Of a DNA stretch of 64,000 nucleotides, positions 877-62,146 are shown piece after piece; the stretch's first letter is position 1; every line of letters starts with the position of its first letter. The translations under genes were made by a program, and so were the position numbers. This stretch comes from a bacterium (GTDB taxonomy: Bacteria; Actinomycetota; Acidimicrobiia; Spongiisociales; ZC4RG35), in assembly GCA_028823995.1 (NCBI GenBank), contig JAPPFD010000009.1, positions 89,500-153,499 of the forward strand. The letters are read 5' to 3'. The notes under the pieces were generated by a model. The model made no database searches, was not told the origin of the DNA, and saw only the letters and a list, made by a program, of their open reading frames with translations.

Positions 877-1132
877 ACACCTGCCGTAGGTTTTGCCACA
901 GGCTGTGAAAAAAGCTGCGGTGGGGAGGTTGATCTTGTCCCACGGACAGTCCCATATTGACATGAGCCAAACACCGAGACCCGTCCGCCCCAGGCGTCGC
1001 CCGGACCGCGTCGAGGGATCAAATCGACCCAATCAGCAAGCCTGTCCCAGGCTGGACAGAGCCTGTTCAACCCATGGAAAGGTGGTGGCGGGGGAGGGTT
1101 CCCGAAATAGGGGCTGAGAATTTCGCGACATT
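877..1132 (+). repeat. Dispersed ~255-bp intergenic repeat, copy A
   Basis: Aligns end to end with the reverse complement of 58692-58943. Shared blocks include ACACCTGCCG, TGTCCCAC, CCGAGACC, GACCGCGTCGAGG, CTGTCC-N6-GGACAGAGCCTGTTCAACC, GGTGGTGGCGGGG, GAGGGTTCCC and TTTCGCGACATT. Confidence 0.9.
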
Positions 1133-22487: not shown

Positions 22488-23078
22488 ATGAACGACGCTG
22501 ACCGGCTGTTCGGCCCGAGCACCGTCTCTGAAGTGATCACCTCCACCGAGATCGCGGAACGGGTGGCCGAACTGGGCAGGGCCCTTACCACCGAATACCG
22601 GGACCGCTCACCCGTGATGGTGGGGATAATGAAGGGATCGGTGTGCTTTCTGGCGGACCTGGTGAGGAACATGGATCTTGAGATGGAGATCGAGTTCCTG
22701 GCGCTCAAACGCTACAGGGAGGGCCCCTATGTCGGTATCGCCATGGACCTCTTCACCGATGTCGGTGGACGAGACGTGATCGTGGTCATGGACATGGTGG
22801 ACACCGGTTTCAACCTCGACGCCATCCACCGGTTGTTGAGAGAGCGTGCCCCGGCTTCCATTGCCACGGTTGCCCTTCTGGACCGGAAGGTGCGTCGGCT
22901 GATCGAGGTGCCCCTGGAATACCGCGGCTTTGAGGTCGGATACGACTTCCTGGTGGGATACGGCTTGGACTGGGATGGCCGCTACCGGGGGCTGCCTTCG
23001 ATTTGGGCGGTGCTCGATCGGTCGGCCCTCGAAACCGATCCCCATTTGCTCGACCGCCACGTGTTTGCGGAGAGGTAG
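22488..23078 (+). CDS. hpt: Hypoxanthine phosphoribosyltransferase-like protein (divergent motifs)
   Basis: VGIMKGSVCFLADL, VMDMVDTG, ALLDRK and FLVGYGLDWDGRYRGLP motifs. Confidence 0.85.
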   Translation: MNDADRLFGPSTVSEVITSTEIAERVAELGRALTTEYRDRSPVMVGIMKGSVCFLADLVRNMDLEMEIEFLALKRYREGPYVGIAMDLFTDVGGRDVIVVMDMVDTGFNLDAIHRLLRERAPASIATVALLDRKVRRLIEVPLEYRGFEVGYDFLVGYGLDWDGRYRGLPSIWAVLDRSALETDPHLLDRHVFAER

Positions 23079-34035: not shown

Positions 34036-34157
34036 GGCTACAGCCTCAAGAGAGATGGCTGCCATCGGGGGCTCCCCTCGATTGGGCGGTTTTGGACCGG
34101 CCGGCTCTCGAAACCGATCCCCACATTCTCGACCGTCAGGTGTTTGCGGAGAGGTAG
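34036..34157 (+). pseudogene. hpt: Displaced, frameshifted 3' fragment of hpt
   Basis: Reads GYSLKRDGCHRGLPSI[-1 nt]AVLDRPALETDPHILDRQVFAER* versus hpt GYGLDWDGRYRGLPSIWAVLDRSALETDPHLLDRHVFAER*. About 25 differences in 123 nt. Confidence 0.9.
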
Positions 34158-38192: not shown

Positions 38193-38729
38193 GTGGATAC
38201 TCTGGCGGGACAGCTTCTGGTTGCCTCGCCCCGGCTGGTGGACCCCAACTTCGTCCGCACGGTGGTGGTGATGTTGAACCACGACGGCCAGGGCGCGATG
38301 GGAGTGGTGATAAACCGTCCCAGCGAGTTGCCGGTCGCCGATTACCTACCCGAGTGGGTGGACACCCTGGCGTCTCCCGAGGTCGTCTTCTACGGCGGCC
38401 CGGTGGAGCAGACGGTCGCCATCGGGCTACGGGAGAGTGCGGACGCCGGAGCGAACTCCACCCCCATTCCGGGGCTCGGCATGGTCAACTTCGGTGAGGA
38501 CCAAGCGGACCTGACGGACGGCCGCGTGCGGGTCTTCGCCGGTTACGCCGGATGGGGGCCCGGCCAACTCGAGGAGGAGATCGAGGAGGAGTCCTGGATC
38601 ACCGTGCCGGCCTTCGCCGGGGATGTCTTCTCCCCGGTCCCCGAAGACCTGTGGGCCAAGGTCCTCAGCCGCCAGGGCGGACAAATCGCTCTCCTGGCCT
38701 CCATGCCGCTCGACCCCGAGCTCAACTGA
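38193..38729 (+). CDS. YqgE/AlgH (DUF179) family protein
   Basis: DPNFVRTVV, GVVINRP, GGPV and FAGYAGWGPGQLEEE motifs. Confidence 0.95.
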   Translation: MDTLAGQLLVASPRLVDPNFVRTVVVMLNHDGQGAMGVVINRPSELPVADYLPEWVDTLASPEVVFYGGPVEQTVAIGLRESADAGANSTPIPGLGMVNFGEDQADLTDGRVRVFAGYAGWGPGQLEEEIEEESWITVPAFAGDVFSPVPEDLWAKVLSRQGGQIALLASMPLDPELN

Positions 38730-38763: not shown

Positions 38764-39022
38764 ATTCTTGGGTTTACCCTCCCGACCCGCCGCCGCCTTT
38801 CCGGTCGAAAAATATCGGATGGGCGCAGGCCGATCCGAAACCGAGGATCTGATCGTCGGCTAGATTGCTCCCTGCCCGTGGATAGTGAGTGGTTTTCCGC
38901 GGGACAGGAGGCTTGATGGTGATCGAAACGGTCCGGGCCATTTGTGATGTTTGTTGCTGACAGTGTGGTCGGGTGGTGGGACACTCGGCCCGGCCGTGTT
39001 CCCCGGTTTTTCCGCGACTGCG
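38764..39022 (-). repeat. Dispersed intergenic repeat, diverged copy B
   Basis: The minus strand carries the family blocks in order: GAAAAACCGGGG, TGTCCCACCA..CCACA.TG, CCCGGACCG, CTGTCCC and GGAAAGGCGGCGGCGGG..GGGAGGGT..CCC..AAT. Confidence 0.65.
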
Positions 39023-39919: not shown

Positions 39920-42424
39920 GTGGGTACCAGGACGCCCACCCGTCGGAGGCAGAGCGGGCGGAGGCGGGTGTCCTCCAAGAAAACCAAAAAGCCGGTCAAA
40001 GGGAAATCAGCGCCCAGGCGGCCGGTGAGTCCCCCTCAGCCCAAGTTGCCCCTGCGGAGTCGGCTGTGGTCTGCCGCTTCTTCCCGGATGGGCAAAGTGG
40101 GCGCCGAGGCGTGGGGAGTCATGCTCGTGCTGTTCTCGGTGATCCTCACCCTGTTCCTGGTGGGCGCCGGAGGACCGGCGGGGCAGGCCGTCAAGACCGC
40201 CTTCTCCTACCTGTTCGGCCAGTGGTCCGCTTTGACGCCCCTCGCCCTGCTGGGAATGGGCTTGGTGCTGGTTTTGGGGAAGCCGGCCCTGAGCAAGCGG
40301 CGGCTCTTCTTCGCGGTCATGGTGTTCTTCTTCTCCACCCTGGGGCTGTTCCACCTCCTGACCGGCGCTCCATCCCTGGCCAGCGGGGCTGAGGTCATCG
40401 GAGAGCGAGGCGGGGCGGTGGGCGCGCTGGTCGCCTTTCCCCTCCAGCGCTCGATCGGATACGCCTCCACCTTCGTGATCCTGGTGGGAGGGGTGACCAT
40501 GAGCGTCCTGATGGTAAGCAGGACGCCGATGCGGGAGTTCTTCGTGGCTTTGGGGGAGTTGATGATGTGGGCGCCCAGGATGATGCGGCGGCGCCGGACG
40601 CTCTCCCGCATCTCCAAGGCGGTGGCGGCCTCGGCGCCGGACTCGTCAACCGTCGTAAGGGCGCCGACCAGGACCGCCGGCAAACGCCGGGGATGGAGGA
40701 GGAAAGCCCTCGGATCGGGGCCGTGGCCGATCGCTCCCGTGTTGGAGGTCCCGGACGCCGAAACCGATCCCGCCGTTCCTGAGGCGGAGGTCCTCGAGGT
40801 GTTGGAGGAGGAGCCGGAGACCGACACCGTGGTACCGGGCTCTCCTCGCCTGCAGGTGGTGGAGGATCCACCCCTGGGCGGTTCGGACCTGTCTGGGCAG
40901 AACGGGCGGGTGAGCGGAGCGGGAGACGCGCCGGAGCCCCCTGCTCCCGATGTGAAGACTGCCCCGGACCGCGAAGCCGCTCCCACCTCCGAGTACCAAC
41001 TTCCCCCGCTCGATCTGCTGAGAAGGGGAGGAAAGGCGACGGGCACCTCCGAAGGCATGAAGAACACGGCCGCCGCCCTGCGCAAGGCGCTGTCGGACCA
41101 CGGCGTGGATGCCCGGATCACGGGGGTGGTGTCGGGGCCCTCGGTCACTCGCTTCGAAATCGAACTGGCGCCCGGGGTGAAGGTGCAGAAGCTGTCGGCT
41201 CTCTCCAATGACATCGCCTACGCCCTGGCCACCCCGGATGTGAGGCTGCTGGTTCCCATCCCGGGCCGCTCGGCGATCGGGGTGGAGGTGCCCAACGTGC
41301 AGCGGCGGCTTGTGAGGCTGGGTGACATCCTGGCCAGCCCCGAGGCCCGGGAGGATCACCGCCCCCTGGTGGTGGGGCTGGGGATGGACATCAGCGGCAA
41401 GCCGTGCTTTCTCGACTTGGCCGAACTCCCCCATGTGCTGATCGCCGGGGCCACCGGGGCCGGCAAGTCGTCTTGCATCAACTCGATGATCACCTCGCTG
41501 CTGACCAGGACCAGTCCCGAGGATCTCAAACTGATTCTGGTGGATCCGAAACGGGTGGAGTTGCGGCAGTACGAGGGCGCTCCCCACCTGCTCACCCGGG
41601 TGATCACCGATCCGAAGAAGGCCACCGAGGGGCTCAAGTGGGTCGTGGCGGAGATGGACCGCCGCTACGACCTGCTGGCCGAGGCTGAGGTGCGGGACAT
41701 CTCCGGGTACGCGGCGAAGTGGAAGATGGGGGCGCTGGAACCGGAGATGTTCGATCTCTTTCCGTATTTGGTGGTGGTGGTGGATGAACTCAACGACCTG
41801 ATGATGGTCGCCGGACGGGAGGTGGAGATGGCGATCGTGCGCATCGCCCAGATGGCGCGGGCGGTCGGCATCCACCTGGTGCTGGCTACCCAGCGACCGT
41901 CCGTGAACGTGATCACGGGGGTGATCAAGGCCAATGTCCCTTCCAGGCTGGCGTTCAGCGTGGCGTCCCAGACCGACAGCCGGGTGATCATAGACTCGGC
42001 GGGCGCCGAGAAGCTGGTGGGACAGGGCGACATGCTGGTTGTGACCGCCCGCCAACCCCGGCCGCAGCGGATTCAGGGAGCCTGGGTGGACGAGGCCGAG
42101 ATATCCCGGGTGGTTTCCTGGGTGACCCGCCAGGGCCGGCCGGATGGGTCAGTCGACGAAGTGCTGGAAATGGCCCTCACCCAGGAGGCGGCCGGCGCGC
42201 CGCCCGAGGACGACGAGGACGAGGAACTGCTGAGACAGGCAATGGAACTGGTGGTTCGCTCCCAGCTCGGCTCCACGTCCATGCTGCAGAGAAAGCTGAG
42301 GGTCGGGTTCGCACGGGCCGGCCGCTTGATGGACATCCTGGAGCGCAGGGGGGTGGTGGGACCCTCCCTCGGGTCCAAGGCCCGGGAGGTGCTGATCGGT
42401 CCCGACGAACTGGGGGTTCGCTGA
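39920..42424 (+). CDS. ftsK: FtsK/SpoIIIE DNA translocase
   Basis: N-terminal TM domain, GATGAGKS, VVDELNDLMM, LATQRPS and gamma domain LQRKLRVGFARAGRLMD. Confidence 0.96.
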   Translation: MGTRTPTRRRQSGRRRVSSKKTKKPVKGKSAPRRPVSPPQPKLPLRSRLWSAASSRMGKVGAEAWGVMLVLFSVILTLFLVGAGGPAGQAVKTAFSYLFGQWSALTPLALLGMGLVLVLGKPALSKRRLFFAVMVFFFSTLGLFHLLTGAPSLASGAEVIGERGGAVGALVAFPLQRSIGYASTFVILVGGVTMSVLMVSRTPMREFFVALGELMMWAPRMMRRRRTLSRISKAVAASAPDSSTVVRAPTRTAGKRRGWRRKALGSGPWPIAPVLEVPDAETDPAVPEAEVLEVLEEEPETDTVVPGSPRLQVVEDPPLGGSDLSGQNGRVSGAGDAPEPPAPDVKTAPDREAAPTSEYQLPPLDLLRRGGKATGTSEGMKNTAAALRKALSDHGVDARITGVVSGPSVTRFEIELAPGVKVQKLSALSNDIAYALATPDVRLLVPIPGRSAIGVEVPNVQRRLVRLGDILASPEAREDHRPLVVGLGMDISGKPCFLDLAELPHVLIAGATGAGKSSCINSMITSLLTRTSPEDLKLILVDPKRVELRQYEGAPHLLTRVITDPKKATEGLKWVVAEMDRRYDLLAEAEVRDISGYAAKWKMGALEPEMFDLFPYLVVVVDELNDLMMVAGREVEMAIVRIAQMARAVGIHLVLATQRPSVNVITGVIKANVPSRLAFSVASQTDSRVIIDSAGAEKLVGQGDMLVVTARQPRPQRIQGAWVDEAEISRVVSWVTRQGRPDGSVDEVLEMALTQEAAGAPPEDDEDEELLRQAMELVVRSQLGSTSMLQRKLRVGFARAGRLMDILERRGVVGPSLGSKAREVLIGPDELGVR

Positions 42425-57354: not shown

Positions 57355-58575
57355 TCATTTTCTTTGTTTGAAGGGGGTCCGACGGCGCCGTCGGATTGTC
57401 CGGTTGCGCCGGACGGTGGTTGGGCTGTTGTGTTTGAGTGGTGGTTTGAGGTGGTATTTGCCGGTTGGTGTTTTGCGTACTTGCCAGTGGTCGTCGTGGA
57501 CTTTGTGGTGGCAGCGTGAGCACAATAGACACATGTCGTCGAGGTCGGTGTTGCCTTGGACGGCCCAAGGGATGATGTGGTGGGATTGGCACCAGTTGGC
57601 GCTAGCGCCACATCCCACGCATGCTTTGTCCCGGGCTACGAGGGCGATGCGTTGGGCGGGGCTGGCGGCCCGTCGTGACCGTCCCAGGTCCAGGGGTTGT
57701 GACATGCCCCGGAAGATGGCGGGGAGGATGTCCGATTGGCAGGCCAGGTCCCGGATCTTCTCTATCGGGATGGGGGTCCCGTCACCGAGACGCCCGTTGC
57801 GAAGCTCCCGAGAGACCACGTCGTAGTCGGCGATCAACAACAGCCTGGGTCCGCGGGGAGGTTTTCCGTCTTCGCCGGTGTCTTCTCTGGTGACCAACTG
57901 TGCCAGGGCGTCGGCCATTCGCTGGCCCGGAGAGCACCTTGCGCGGGGGTCTTCCTCACGCCACAGTTCGTTCATCTTCTGCGACAACGCCGTTTCGATT
58001 AAGGCGCCGGTGATCGGGTCGAACCGACCGTACAAAACGGTCATGCCGTCTGTGCGGTCGGTGCGGATCTTGGCGAACCTACGTGACCGTTGATGCTCCA
58101 ACCGCGACATCCCGTCGTCTTCTGAGCGTTGCTGTTGGTACTTGCGGACCGTCCCGGCGAATTTGTCAGGCGACTGGGTTCGGGCCTTGCCCACCAACTC
58201 TGTTTCGTCTATCTCCCCCTCCTGGGAGGCCCTGGCCAGGATCCGGGCGTTCTCATAGGGGATCTCTCCATCCCGCATCCCCTCCGACGTCTTAGGCAAC
58301 TCCTCCAGTTCCACCGCGGTTTCTACTTCCGAGCGGGCCTTCCGGCGGGGTCGCAGACCCTTCTCCCGCAGGTTGTCCTCGGTGATGTGGACGCCTTCTC
58401 TGCGGGTCAACTCCGCCAGCGTCTCGGCACGCACCGCCGCGGCCTGGTTCTCCACCCGGAAAGTGGACTGCAACCGTACCCGGAGCTGATCCAGGGTTGC
58501 GTCGCCCACCGCCAGATTGGGCAGAACCGCCTCGATCTGGTTGATGACCCGACCGTCCATGACTGTCTTTTCCAT
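57355..58575 (-). CDS. DUF222-domain HNH endonuclease (13E12-like)
   Basis: GQRMADAL, LDLGRSRR, RDKACVGCGASANWCQSHHIIPW..G.TDLDDMCLLCSRCHHKVH. Basic C-terminal tail. Confidence 0.92.
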   Translation of the reverse strand: MEKTVMDGRVINQIEAVLPNLAVGDATLDQLRVRLQSTFRVENQAAAVRAETLAELTRREGVHITEDNLREKGLRPRRKARSEVETAVELEELPKTSEGMRDGEIPYENARILARASQEGEIDETELVGKARTQSPDKFAGTVRKYQQQRSEDDGMSRLEHQRSRRFAKIRTDRTDGMTVLYGRFDPITGALIETALSQKMNELWREEDPRARCSPGQRMADALAQLVTREDTGEDGKPPRGPRLLLIADYDVVSRELRNGRLGDGTPIPIEKIRDLACQSDILPAIFRGMSQPLDLGRSRRAASPAQRIALVARDKACVGCGASANWCQSHHIIPWAVQGNTDLDDMCLLCSRCHHKVHDDHWQVRKTPTGKYHLKPPLKHNSPTTVRRNRTIRRRRRTPFKQRK

Positions 58576-58582
58576 GTGTACC

Positions 58583-58604
58583 AGTATGCCAAGGGGGTGT
58601 GACA
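58583..58604 (-). promoter_or_regulatory. PafBC-type promoter of the HNH gene (leaderless)
   Basis: TGTCAC-N10-CATACT, 7 nt before ATG 58575. Confidence 0.6.
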
Positions 58605-58691
58605 AAACACTGCTATATATCACCAAAATGGGAAAACAAACACGAATGTTCTTGGCGGTCCTCCCGTGAACCACCACCCGACTACCGGAGA

Positions 58692-58943
58692 AATGTCGCG
58701 AAAATCGGGGCCCCTATTTGGGAACCCTCCCCCGCCACCACCGTTCCATGGTTGAACAGGCTCTGTCCAGCCCGGGACAGGGCTTGTTGCATTACCTTTC
58801 TTTAGTTCCTCGACGCGGTCCTGGCGGCGCCTGGGCGGCCGGTCTCGGTGCTTGGCTCCTACCAATGTGGCCTGCTGGTGGGACAGAATCAAGCCTTCGA
58901 CCCCGGGTTTTCGAAAACCTGTGAAAAAAGCCGCGGCAGGTGT
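58692..58943 (-). repeat. Dispersed ~255-bp intergenic repeat, copy C
   Basis: Reverse complement aligns with 877-1132. Contains the palindrome GGTTTTCGAAAACC (58906-58919) and the CTGTCC/GGACAG stem (58763-58780). Confidence 0.9.
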
Positions 58944-59014
58944 CGCCTCAGCATCGACCCACCTCACCCTGGGGTTGTCCAAGTCCGGTGCCGACGAGGG
59001 CTATCCTCGCGGGT

Positions 59015-61553: not shown

Positions 61554-61576
61554 TGTCACACCGGGAATGACATCTT
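61554..61576 (+). promoter_or_regulatory. Possible PafBC-like promoter of comF
   Basis: TGTCAC-N11-CATCTT, 6 nt before the ATG. The spacer is one base longer than consensus. Confidence 0.35.
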
Positions 61577-61582
61577 GTCGCC

Positions 61583-62146
61583 ATGGTTTGGTGTCTGGCC
61601 TGTCTGCGACCCGCCGAACTGGCGGTCTGCCCCGATTGTCTGCGCACCATGGGTGCGGGGCCCTGGCGGAGGCTGGCGTGCGGGATAGGCGTGTCCTCGG
61701 CTCTTGTGCATCGGGCGGCGGCGCGCCGGTTGGTTCTCCGTCTCAAGTACGGCGGTTGCCGGGAGTCGGCCCAGGTGCTGGCGGCCGTGATGCACCCGCT
61801 CCTGCCGACCGACGCATCGGCCCTGGCGCCTGTGCCCCGCATCTACTCCCGGCGTTTGAAATACCGCTCCGACCCCGGCGTACTCCTCGCCGGGGCCCTA
61901 TCGCGGCGCTCGGGCCTCCCGGTCCGCGCGGTCCTCGGCCCTCGCCTTGTGGGTGGGGCCAACGCCGGGTTGGGCCGTACGGACCGGACCGCCCCCCGTT
62001 TTCGCCGCCGGTGGACTCCCACCGGTGGGTTGGTGCTGGTTGACGACGTGCTGACCACCGGGGCCACGCTGACGGCCGCCGCGGCCGCCCTCGGGCACTC
62101 GGTGGTGCTGGGGGCGGTCACCGCAACTGCCTCCTCCCATGCCTGA
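61583..62146 (+). CDS. ComF family protein
   Basis: N-terminal CxxC...CxxC and LKY. PRT motif LVDDVLTTGATL. Confidence 0.88.
   Translation: MVWCLACLRPAELAVCPDCLRTMGAGPWRRLACGIGVSSALVHRAAARRLVLRLKYGGCRESAQVLAAVMHPLLPTDASALAPVPRIYSRRLKYRSDPGVLLAGALSRRSGLPVRAVLGPRLVGGANAGLGRTDRTAPRFRRRWTPTGGLVLVDDVLTTGATLTAAAAALGHSVVLGAVTATASSHA

Follow-up and report, generated by a model that had tools for sequence, protein, structure and literature searches.

In actinobacterial DNA-damage promoters, the PafBC consensus is tGTCgg(N10)tA(N3)T, and a GTC '-26 element' stands in for the -35 hexamer (PMC8635444). The 13E12 (DUF222) genes of M. tuberculosis are reported to be damage-induced and to bear the RecA_NDp motif (PMC3381160). 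According to PMC6789036, no DNA-damage-responsive small RNA has been identified in Actinobacteria. Here we describe a repeat family with three copies in a 64,000-nt stretch of contig JAPPFD010000009.1 (assembly GCA_028823995.1, positions 89,500 to 153,499; hereafter the window, 66.9% G+C), which belongs to a metagenome-assembled genome (MAG) of the Acidimicrobiia. At roughly even confidence, we favor the explanation that the repeat is a multicopy family of small RNA genes ('G-box RNA'), each driven by a promoter that resembles the PafBC/RecA-NDp type and each bearing a conserved G-rich box, and that DUF222-HNH genes and other cassettes insert next to them. The family adds an unannotated, clade-specific non-coding gene family to the Acidimicrobiia symbionts of sponges and corals, whose genomes are known only as MAGs, and it accounts for three 'empty' intergenic regions in the annotation of the window. 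If we have read its promoter correctly, it would also be a candidate DNA-damage-responsive small RNA in Actinobacteria.

The promoter-like part of the repeat has the same GTC about 26 nt upstream, the same -10 A(N3)T and the same spacing as the PafBC/RecA-NDp promoters of Mycobacterium and Arthrobacter. As in M. tuberculosis, where DUF222/13E12 genes are known RecA_NDp targets, the same motif lies 5' of DUF222/13E12 genes, and its geometry at the protein genes is leaderless. Unlike those promoters, the motif in the repeat would drive a non-coding transcript. The gene next to one window copy belongs to the REP13E12/DUF222-HNH family, which is multicopy and has a DNA-damage-type promoter motif, but the repeat is a separate non-coding unit of 250-300 bp that has no DUF222-HNH open reading frame (ORF) and stands alone more often than with such a gene. 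Multicopy trans-acting small RNA families (Qrr1-5, LhrC1-5, actinobacterial 6C) likewise have several paralogs per genome, their own promoters, variable stems and one invariant short motif; the invariant motif of the repeat is G-rich rather than C-rich, and its copy number rises to at least 7. Miniature inverted-repeat transposable elements (MITEs) and dispersed repeats such as Correia, ERIC, BOX and RUP resemble it in being multicopy, non-coding, intergenic, 150-400 bp long, hairpin-capable and sometimes promoter-bearing. However, the repeat has no convincing terminal inverted repeats (TIRs), target-site duplications (TSDs) or cognate transposase, its orthologous copies are retained, and its conservation lies in the promoter and an internal box. 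Finally, HEARO/omega-RNA with IscB offers the likeness of a structured non-coding RNA (ncRNA) of a few hundred nucleotides beside the HNH nuclease gene of a selfish element.

We refer to the three window copies as A, B and C. Blastn within the window aligned copy A (877-1135, +) with copy C (58689-58943, -) over 261 bp at 78.5% identity (E 1e-50), and the same match was recovered as four inverted-repeat pairs. The original prediction, made from the window alone, had described these two copies as full-length relatives, and its observations on them held up. The CTGTCC/GGACAG stem is the same in both (1042-1059 and 58763-58780) with an altered loop (CAGGCT in A, CGGGCT in C), and each has a palindrome in its 5' part (CACAGGCTGTG, 897-907, in A; GGTTTTCGAAAACC, 58906-58919, in C). 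Reading frames are not conserved, again as predicted: indels of 1 and 2 nt in the alignment break any common frame, and the ORFs that overlap the copies (732-1070, -, over A; 58620-58982, -, over C) lie on different strands relative to the element.

Copy B (about 38766-39018, -) gave no match to A or C in pairwise blast (E ~1). It shares with them two colinear blocks, TGTCCCAC..CCAYAYTG and GGAANGGYGGYGGCGGG(N0-3)GGAGGGT, and this two-block pattern, which was derived from the same three copies, has 3 matches in the window compared with 0 in 100 shuffles. Copy B has its own subfamily, with 10 further members outside the window that carry the same promoter block and G-box, which confirms its membership in the family. 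Copy B, the middle of which had been described as different, belongs to a diverged subfamily that has only the promoter block and the G-rich box in common with A and C. Profile hidden Markov model and covariance-model searches found exactly three family copies in the window. There were no tRNA genes in the window, and a search of Rfam 15, as originally suggested, gave 0 matches at gathering thresholds across its whole length (HEARO, 6S, SRP, 6C, raiA and riboswitches included). At permissive E-values, copies A, B and C and one D-type copy gave chance-level matches only (E 0.85-10, at least 14 bits under threshold). The three repeats are real, and they are neither a known RNA family nor an insertion sequence end.

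We scanned the degenerate G-box pattern GGAANGGYGGYGGCGGG(N0-3)GGAGGGT against 185,579 species genomes (GTDB, one genome per species). Of the 25 loci returned, 20 were true copies, and these came from sponge or coral projects, in MAGs titled Acidimicrobiia or unclassified 'bacterium' with one exception, titled Ca. Spongiisociaceae, which is an Acidimicrobiia family. Pattern and profile searches together gave a total of about 32 copies, and the roughly 12 MAGs that carry them are all Acidimicrobiia associated with sponges or corals. Many more copies genome-wide had been expected, and further copies do exist: the window's genome has at least 5, including two extra B-type copies (loci L033 and L032), and the MAG of isolate a5413b3d has at least 7 D-type copies with 85-92% identity and unrelated flanks (L004, L009, L012, L013, L017, L018, L019). 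When the G-box pattern was scanned against JGI metagenomes, the 6 loci found were one duplicate of L010 and chance matches in coding sequence; the IMG/VR, plasmid and phage collections gave no family match. As far as the searched collections reach, the family appears restricted to a clade of sponge- and coral-associated Acidimicrobiia. Two weak covariance-model matches, L003:7731-7886 (+; E 0.003) and L021:1924-2078 (+; E 0.01), may be further diverged copies. A single sample, that of ENA ERZ25069580, yielded both the window's contig (ctg105597_29x_l, 1.47 Mb) and a close relative, the closed genome OZ242375.1 (ctg105685_165x_c, 2.6 Mb); both carry the family, so two related symbionts with it coexist there.

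The copies outside the window fall into an A-like subfamily (L001, L008, L024), a C-like subfamily (L025, which is 95% identical, L023, L005, L015), a B-like subfamily (L002, L016, L007, L014, L011, L021, L010), the D type, and single diverged forms (E in L020, F in L016:310-526, others in L035 and L036). In alignments, the unit is about 250-300 bp long and the order of its parts is constant across subfamilies. From the 5' end, these are a left-end motif CCTGC..CG, a small subfamily-specific palindrome, an A-tract, TTGAC/TTGAT, TGTCnnnn, 8 nt and CAnAnT. About 7 nt 3' of CAnAnT there follow the conserved start CAARCA(C/U)C, hairpins, the invariant G-box and a short GC hairpin. The layout of the upstream arm, with the A-tract about 15-20 nt 5' of the -35 hexamer, is common to the A, C, D, E and B types. 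In all types but B, namely A, C, D, E and F, the last part is (A/U)UUUCGCGA(C/G) plus about 35 weakly conserved nt. Types A, C, D and E have UUUUCGCGA after the GC hairpin, and within the 3' extension GTGATCAAC, GTGGTTCAC and CTGATTTCAC occupy corresponding positions in types A, C and D. B-type units carry an additional long hairpin and stop shortly after GGGUAAACCC. The parts of the window copies are listed here, with P1, P2 and P3 denoting hairpins:

877-928 (+): copy A, upstream arm, with left-end motif ACACCTGCCGTAGG (877-890), the palindrome at 897-907 and A-tract GAAAAAAG (907-914), possibly UP-element-like
929-958 (+): copy A, promoter-like block, with TTGATC (929-934), TGTCCCAC (936-943) and CATATT (953-958); its TGTC-to-CA spacing is N13, one above that of other copies
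965-1129 (+): copy A, predicted transcript of about 165 nt, from 5' AGCCAAACACC (965-975) to the tail AATTTCGCGAC (1119-1129), both ends putative
976-1012 (+): copy A, P1 (loop GGCGTC)
1042-1059 (+): copy A, P2 (CTGTCC/GGACAG)
1076-1099 (+): copy A, G-box
1099-1113 (+): copy A, P3
1130-1168 (+): copy A, weakly conserved 3' extension, ending in GTGATCAGTAGG (1157-1168)
38955-39018 (-): copy B, upstream arm and promoter-like block, with GTCGCGGAAAAACCGGGG (39001-39018), a degenerate -35, TGTCCCAC (38976-38983) and CACACT (38962-38967); position weight matrix (PWM) score 28.5 bits
38766-38954 (-): copy B, predicted B-type transcript of about 190 nt, with 5' ACAAACATC
38922-38948 (-): copy B, P1
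38867-38912 (-): copy B, long hairpin P2a
38840-38860 and 38815-38838 (-): copy B, P2b
38776-38802 (-): copy B, G-box GGAAAGGCGGCGGCGGGTCGGGAGGGT
38770-38779 (-): copy B, GGGTAAACCC
58858-58943 (-): copy C, upstream arm and promoter-like block, with ACACCTGCCGCGG (58931-58943), the palindrome at 58906-58919, TTGATT (58887-58892), TGTCCCAC (58878-58885) and CACATT (58864-58869); PWM score 33 bits
58695-58857 (-): copy C, predicted transcript, with 5' AGCCAAGCACC
58812-58846 (-): copy C, P1
58763-58780 (-): copy C, P2
58724-58747 (-): copy C, G-box
58708-58727 (-): copy C, P3 (GGGTTCC..GGGGCCC), then GATTTTCGCGAC (58695-58706)
57355-58604 (-): DUF222+HNH gene next to copy C, including its own promoter-like motif; ORF 57355-58575, ATG at 58575

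The conserved TGTCCCAC..CAYAYTG block, whose promoter nature the original prediction had overlooked together with the DUF222-HNH linkage described below, looks like a promoter rather than a part of the RNA. The TTGAC and CAnAnT hexamers are 17-18 nt apart, and where the sequence between them is replaced (E_L020 and F_L016), both hexamers are kept. TTGAC, TGTC-N12-CAnnnT and their spacing are retained in subfamilies that are otherwise nearly unrelated. The form TGTC-N12-[CT]A-N3-T is exact in 20/22 element copies and in 4/6 DUF222 upstream regions tested; one extra base is present in copy A, in the window's comF-like site and in duf_L005, and duf_L007 has CGTC for TGTC. The TGTC-N12-CAnnnT spacing of the repeat equals that of the published PafBC consensus (PMC8635444).

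The motif also lies immediately before protein-coding genes. At the DUF222 gene of the window it reads TGTCACAC-N8-CATACT (58583-58604, -), is followed by GGTACAC-ATG and ends 7 nt 5' of the ATG, and the same motif precedes the DUF222 ATG in L007, L005, L023, L025, L020, L032, L033, L036 and L038. A comF-like gene downstream of rnj has a TGTC..CATnTT motif adjoining its ATG in three genomes (L005:4040, L023:3526, L025:4250), and the window counterpart, with one extra base, is found at 61554-61576 (+) before ORF 61583-62146. At the DUF222 and comF-like genes the motif ends 6-7 nt 5' of the ATG, a placement that predicts leaderless mRNAs, and this geometry fixes the orientation of the presumed transcript of the repeat. 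A -35-like TTGAC/TTGAT lies 2-3 nt upstream of TGTC in most repeat copies, whereas the DUF222 and comF-like promoters do not have it. ORF 61583-62146 itself encodes a small Cys-rich protein (MVWCLAC..) that is weakly comF-like (TIGR00201, 28 bits, below cutoff), and is a third kind of gene with this promoter type; its neighbors are rnj and hpf, and further downstream is a gene that, by inspection only, is probably secA. A PWM scan of the window revealed no further TGTC-type promoters upstream of recognizable DNA-repair genes. On the strength of these motifs, the repeat is probably under DNA-damage control of the PafBC/RecA-NDp type.

Covariation gives moderate support to the view that the hairpins are conserved by pairing, with alignments or structures drawn in part from the family's own members. 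RNAalifold predicted 38 pairs for eight B-type sequences, and 14 of these show compensatory changes. With eleven B-type sequences, 17/44 pairs were changed on both sides, compared with 10.1±1.9 in shuffles (0/500), and 67.8% of cells were paired as opposed to 31-46% when the partner columns were slid; for this count the alignment was plain MAFFT output and the structure was that of a single member. The 18 A/C/D/E/F copies were fitted to R1, a covariance model with hand-set P1, P2 and P3, and had 68.7% of cells paired versus 30-45% when slid, a comparison in which the fitted alignment leans towards its own structure. Copies A (E 1e-35) and C each scored 155 bits with R1, and copy B gave E 4e-62 in nhmmer with the B-type profile. 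Helix P1 of the A/C/D/E/F types is 86.8% paired and has 5/9 pairs compensated (for example, GUCCG/CGGAC versus GUCUG/CAGAC). The sequence of the P2 hairpin is unrelated between the A/C, D, E and L015 copies, yet it folds in each (z -2 to -5), and the B-type hairpins likewise fold despite differing sequence. RNAalifold across subfamilies on MAFFT alignments mostly fails, since the hairpins cannot be aligned by sequence. At the 3' end, copy C has a GC hairpin and then GAUUUU (58695-58727); the D and B types have no clear U-tract. A long-range helix of 8 pairs between 5' GCCAARCACC and the G-box (GGUGGUGGC) was considered and not adopted: it shows only C/U wobble changes, is broken in 2-3 of 17 aligned copies (E_L020, C_L015) and is impossible in the B type.

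The G-box, GGAANGGYGGYGGCGGG(N0-3)GGAGGG, is the sole long invariant stretch common to all subfamilies. Its N and Y positions vary without compensating change elsewhere, and the 5' end, its candidate intramolecular partner, is not the same in the B type as elsewhere in the family, so internal pairing fails to account for its conservation. With its free loop bases, the GGNGGNGGNGG layout would fit a two-layer G-quadruplex or a protein site. We rejected pairing with the 3' end of 16S rRNA by inspection, as the positions that would need to pair (N and Y) vary freely. We also rejected the G-box as an antisense regulator of DUF222 mRNA, the 5' region of which ranks 39-42 of 45 genes. The top-ranked G-box 'targets' may simply mirror C-rich, low-complexity coding sequence.

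The surroundings of the copies are those of a stand-alone unit. Copy A is preceded by an acyl-CoA dehydrogenase gene (ends at 850, +) and followed by two convergent genes (1271-2607, -). Copy B occupies the gap from an algH-like gene (ends at 38729, +) to rnhB (starts at about 39083, +), on the strand opposite to both, and copy C lies between dapA (+, divergent) and the same-strand DUF222+HNH gene 3' of it. With such different neighbors, the three window copies have no downstream gene in common. Across the family, at least 7 copies (copy B included) have a convergent gene as their next downstream neighbor, at a distance of 6-86 nt, and these neighbors are mutually unrelated; most copies adjoin convergent genes, which marks the repeat as a unit of its own. 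As would be expected for a trans-acting small RNA gene, the repeat is intergenic, its promoter-like block is conserved, and in at least 7 copies no co-oriented gene follows. Copies B (algH-rnhB) and C (dapA) are syntenic in related MAGs, with flanking proteins 80-96% identical and elements 72-83% identical. The orthologs of copy B at the same algH-rnhB locus are in L016 and L002; those of copy C at the dapA locus are 95% identical in L025/L037, with further ones in L023 and L005. A-type copies are at different loci in related genomes.

The protein encoded next to copy C matches Pfam DUF222 (1.6e-25) and HNH (5e-07). Its genome has three DUF222 paralogs and OZ242375.1 has four, 84-100% identical to the query, and an element lies within 300 bp of 6/7 of these paralogs. 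The arrangement varies: the element is upstream and on the same strand as DUF222 at the dapA locus (C type) and at the hemW-hrcA locus (B type, in both L033 and L038), downstream and co-oriented in L035, and divergent in L036. The seventh paralog (L032) has only a TTTTTCGCG remnant upstream, with a B-type copy 2.3 kb away. Further element/DUF222 neighbors are found in L007, L020 and L016. Loci L007 and L014 are 97.8% identical on both flanks and have different cassettes starting 8 nt after the B-type G-box, DUF222-HNH in the former (L007:1680-3152) and an unrelated 244-aa ORF with 54% GC and a weak STM4504/CBY_0614-family match in the latter (L014:3328-4401). The variable orientation and the many solo copies speak for insertion of DUF222 genes beside the element rather than a fixed RNA-protein operon, in the way that free-standing homing-endonuclease genes settle next to their targets. 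In L033:3880-3900, a run of about 17 G residues lies between the B-type element and the DUF222 promoter and is either a real homopolymer or an assembly artefact.

In the literature on DUF222/13E12, seen mostly by title, no companion element of this kind is described. The near-obligatory neighborhood of DUF222-HNH genes and the element is a testable idea for how selfish nuclease genes spread. We think it unlikely that the G-box element is a functional partner of the DUF222-HNH nucleases, either as their homing or cleavage target or as a binding or directing RNA, the two forming a selfish pair triggered by DNA damage. If this were true, it would give a first mechanistic handle on the movement and control of the 13E12/DUF222 family in Actinobacteria, including M. 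tuberculosis.

In the small RNA explanation, the A-tract, the TTGAC -35-like hexamer, TGTC at the PafBC -26 position and the CAnnnT -10 would drive a transcript of about 160-200 nt, which would fold into two to four hairpins whose sequence is subfamily-specific and whose pairing is kept. The RNA would be made, or made more, after DNA damage, together with the DUF222-HNH genes that have the same promoter type. The G-box would be its working part, as a site for a protein or a C/U-rich nucleic acid partner or as a two-layer G-quadruplex, and conserved copies would double as landing sites for DUF222-HNH (13E12-type) selfish nuclease genes. We infer transcription and its strand from the promoter only, since the structure cannot discriminate between strands.

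Several results weigh against this explanation. Folded singly, copies A and C show no gain in stability over shuffled sequences (z -0.3 and +0.9). The independent covariation events are few, since much of the compensatory change falls between entire subfamilies. Consensus folding is equally good on the opposite strand (-35.1 vs -33.1 kcal/mol), and the model-fitted alignment has more A-C cells (53) than G-U cells (35). A terminator scan found no clear intrinsic terminator. The G-box was rejected as an accessible seed, its predicted unpaired probability being 0.24-0.35 compared with 0.42 for the rest of the RNA. As for the promoter, E_L020 and F_L016 have no TGTC, the bases after GTC are CC, AC or TC where the mycobacterial PafBC consensus has gg, and the first -10 base is C, not T; the repeat also bears the additional -35-like hexamer. 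A scan with a generic sigma-70 consensus calls no window copy, all of them falling just under threshold (copy A with 8/12 matches). Lastly, one MAG has at least 7 copies, dispersed and 85-92% identical, which resemble a mobile element.

That resemblance leads to the best-surviving alternative, which we consider possible but decidedly less probable than a small RNA family: a non-autonomous mobile DNA element, MITE-like or homing co-converted, spread via DUF222-HNH, with the conserved blocks (the G-box or TCGCGAAAA/TTTTCGCGA) acting as protein sites on DNA. The dispersed copies of that MAG have sharp edges and no common flanks, and non-orthologous A-type copies are more alike (87%) than syntenic C copies (72%). 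The tie to the DUF222 paralogs, in all orientations and down to the TTTTTCGCG remnant at the seventh, and the swapping of cassettes at a point just 3' of the element in L007 and L014 would both suit such an element. Units of the C, D and E types are framed by an imperfect inverted repeat, TCGCGAAAA..TTTTCGCGA, but it lies 30-60 nt inside the unit edges and is degenerate in the A type, where the changes are uncompensated. The true edges of the D type show only a weak GCG.GTAGG resemblance. We looked for TSDs, as originally suggested, by aligning seven D-type copies with their flanks, and found no consistent one; TA/TAA near both edges of some D-type copies is due to adjacent stop codons and fuzzy edges. 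DUF222-HNH, the sole recurrent neighbor, does not belong to any known transposase family. Copies B and C stay at the same loci across species, conservation is highest at the promoter and one internal box, not at the ends, and hairpin pairing is kept by compensatory change. Of the original alternatives, 'structured ncRNA or MITE-like', the first is supported, by the compensated hairpins of a non-coding family, and the second is not, given the lack of a convincing TIR or TSD and the synteny of B and C. Mobility is nevertheless compatible with the small RNA explanation, because a transcribed element can also move.

It is very unlikely that the repeat arose by duplication of promoter or 5'-leader DNA and regulates the downstream gene in cis, like a riboswitch or another regulatory leader. 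The unit does start with a promoter-like block, and a same-strand gene lies 3' of some copies (DUF222 after C, L007, L033 and L038; an aminotransferase gene 38 nt after D_L012). However, the convergent next genes described above, after B and also after A, and the absence of any relationship among downstream genes do not suit a leader, and DUF222 has its own promoter motif between the element and the ATG.

Weakest of all is a role as RNA cofactor or guide of the DUF222-HNH nuclease, comparable to the omega-RNA (HEARO) of IscB and with solo copies as orphaned or trans-acting RNA genes, which we likewise regard as very unlikely: close linkage to DUF222-HNH paralogs, a common promoter type that implies co-expression, a structured RNA of omega-RNA-like size and weak HNH matches to IscB (NCBIfam guided_IscB, 30 bits vs cutoff 175; PDB IscB chains, E 0.01-0.3) speak for it, but side and orientation vary, the majority of copies are solo, the IscB similarity is that of a generic HNH motif far under threshold, a Pfam scan of the DUF222 protein gives DUF222 and HNH only (no RuvC or PLMP), Rfam gives no HEARO match, there is no obviously hypervariable guide-like end, and the G-box is poorly complementary to the 5' region of DUF222 mRNA.

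Two minor features of the window remain. Directly 3' of copy A, in parallel with the cassettes of L007 and L014, is a low-GC island (1136-2900, 58% vs 67%). It contains an unknown 181-aa ORF (1271-1816, -) and the gene of a PD-(D/E)XK_4 nuclease (1813-2607, -), whose PADLOC match is the candidate defence family PDC-S26 (E 1e-24). A 76-nt direct repeat at 23003-23078 and 34082-34157 (86% identical), with a weaker copy at 40739-40778, may be a motif of paralogous genes and not a non-coding repeat.

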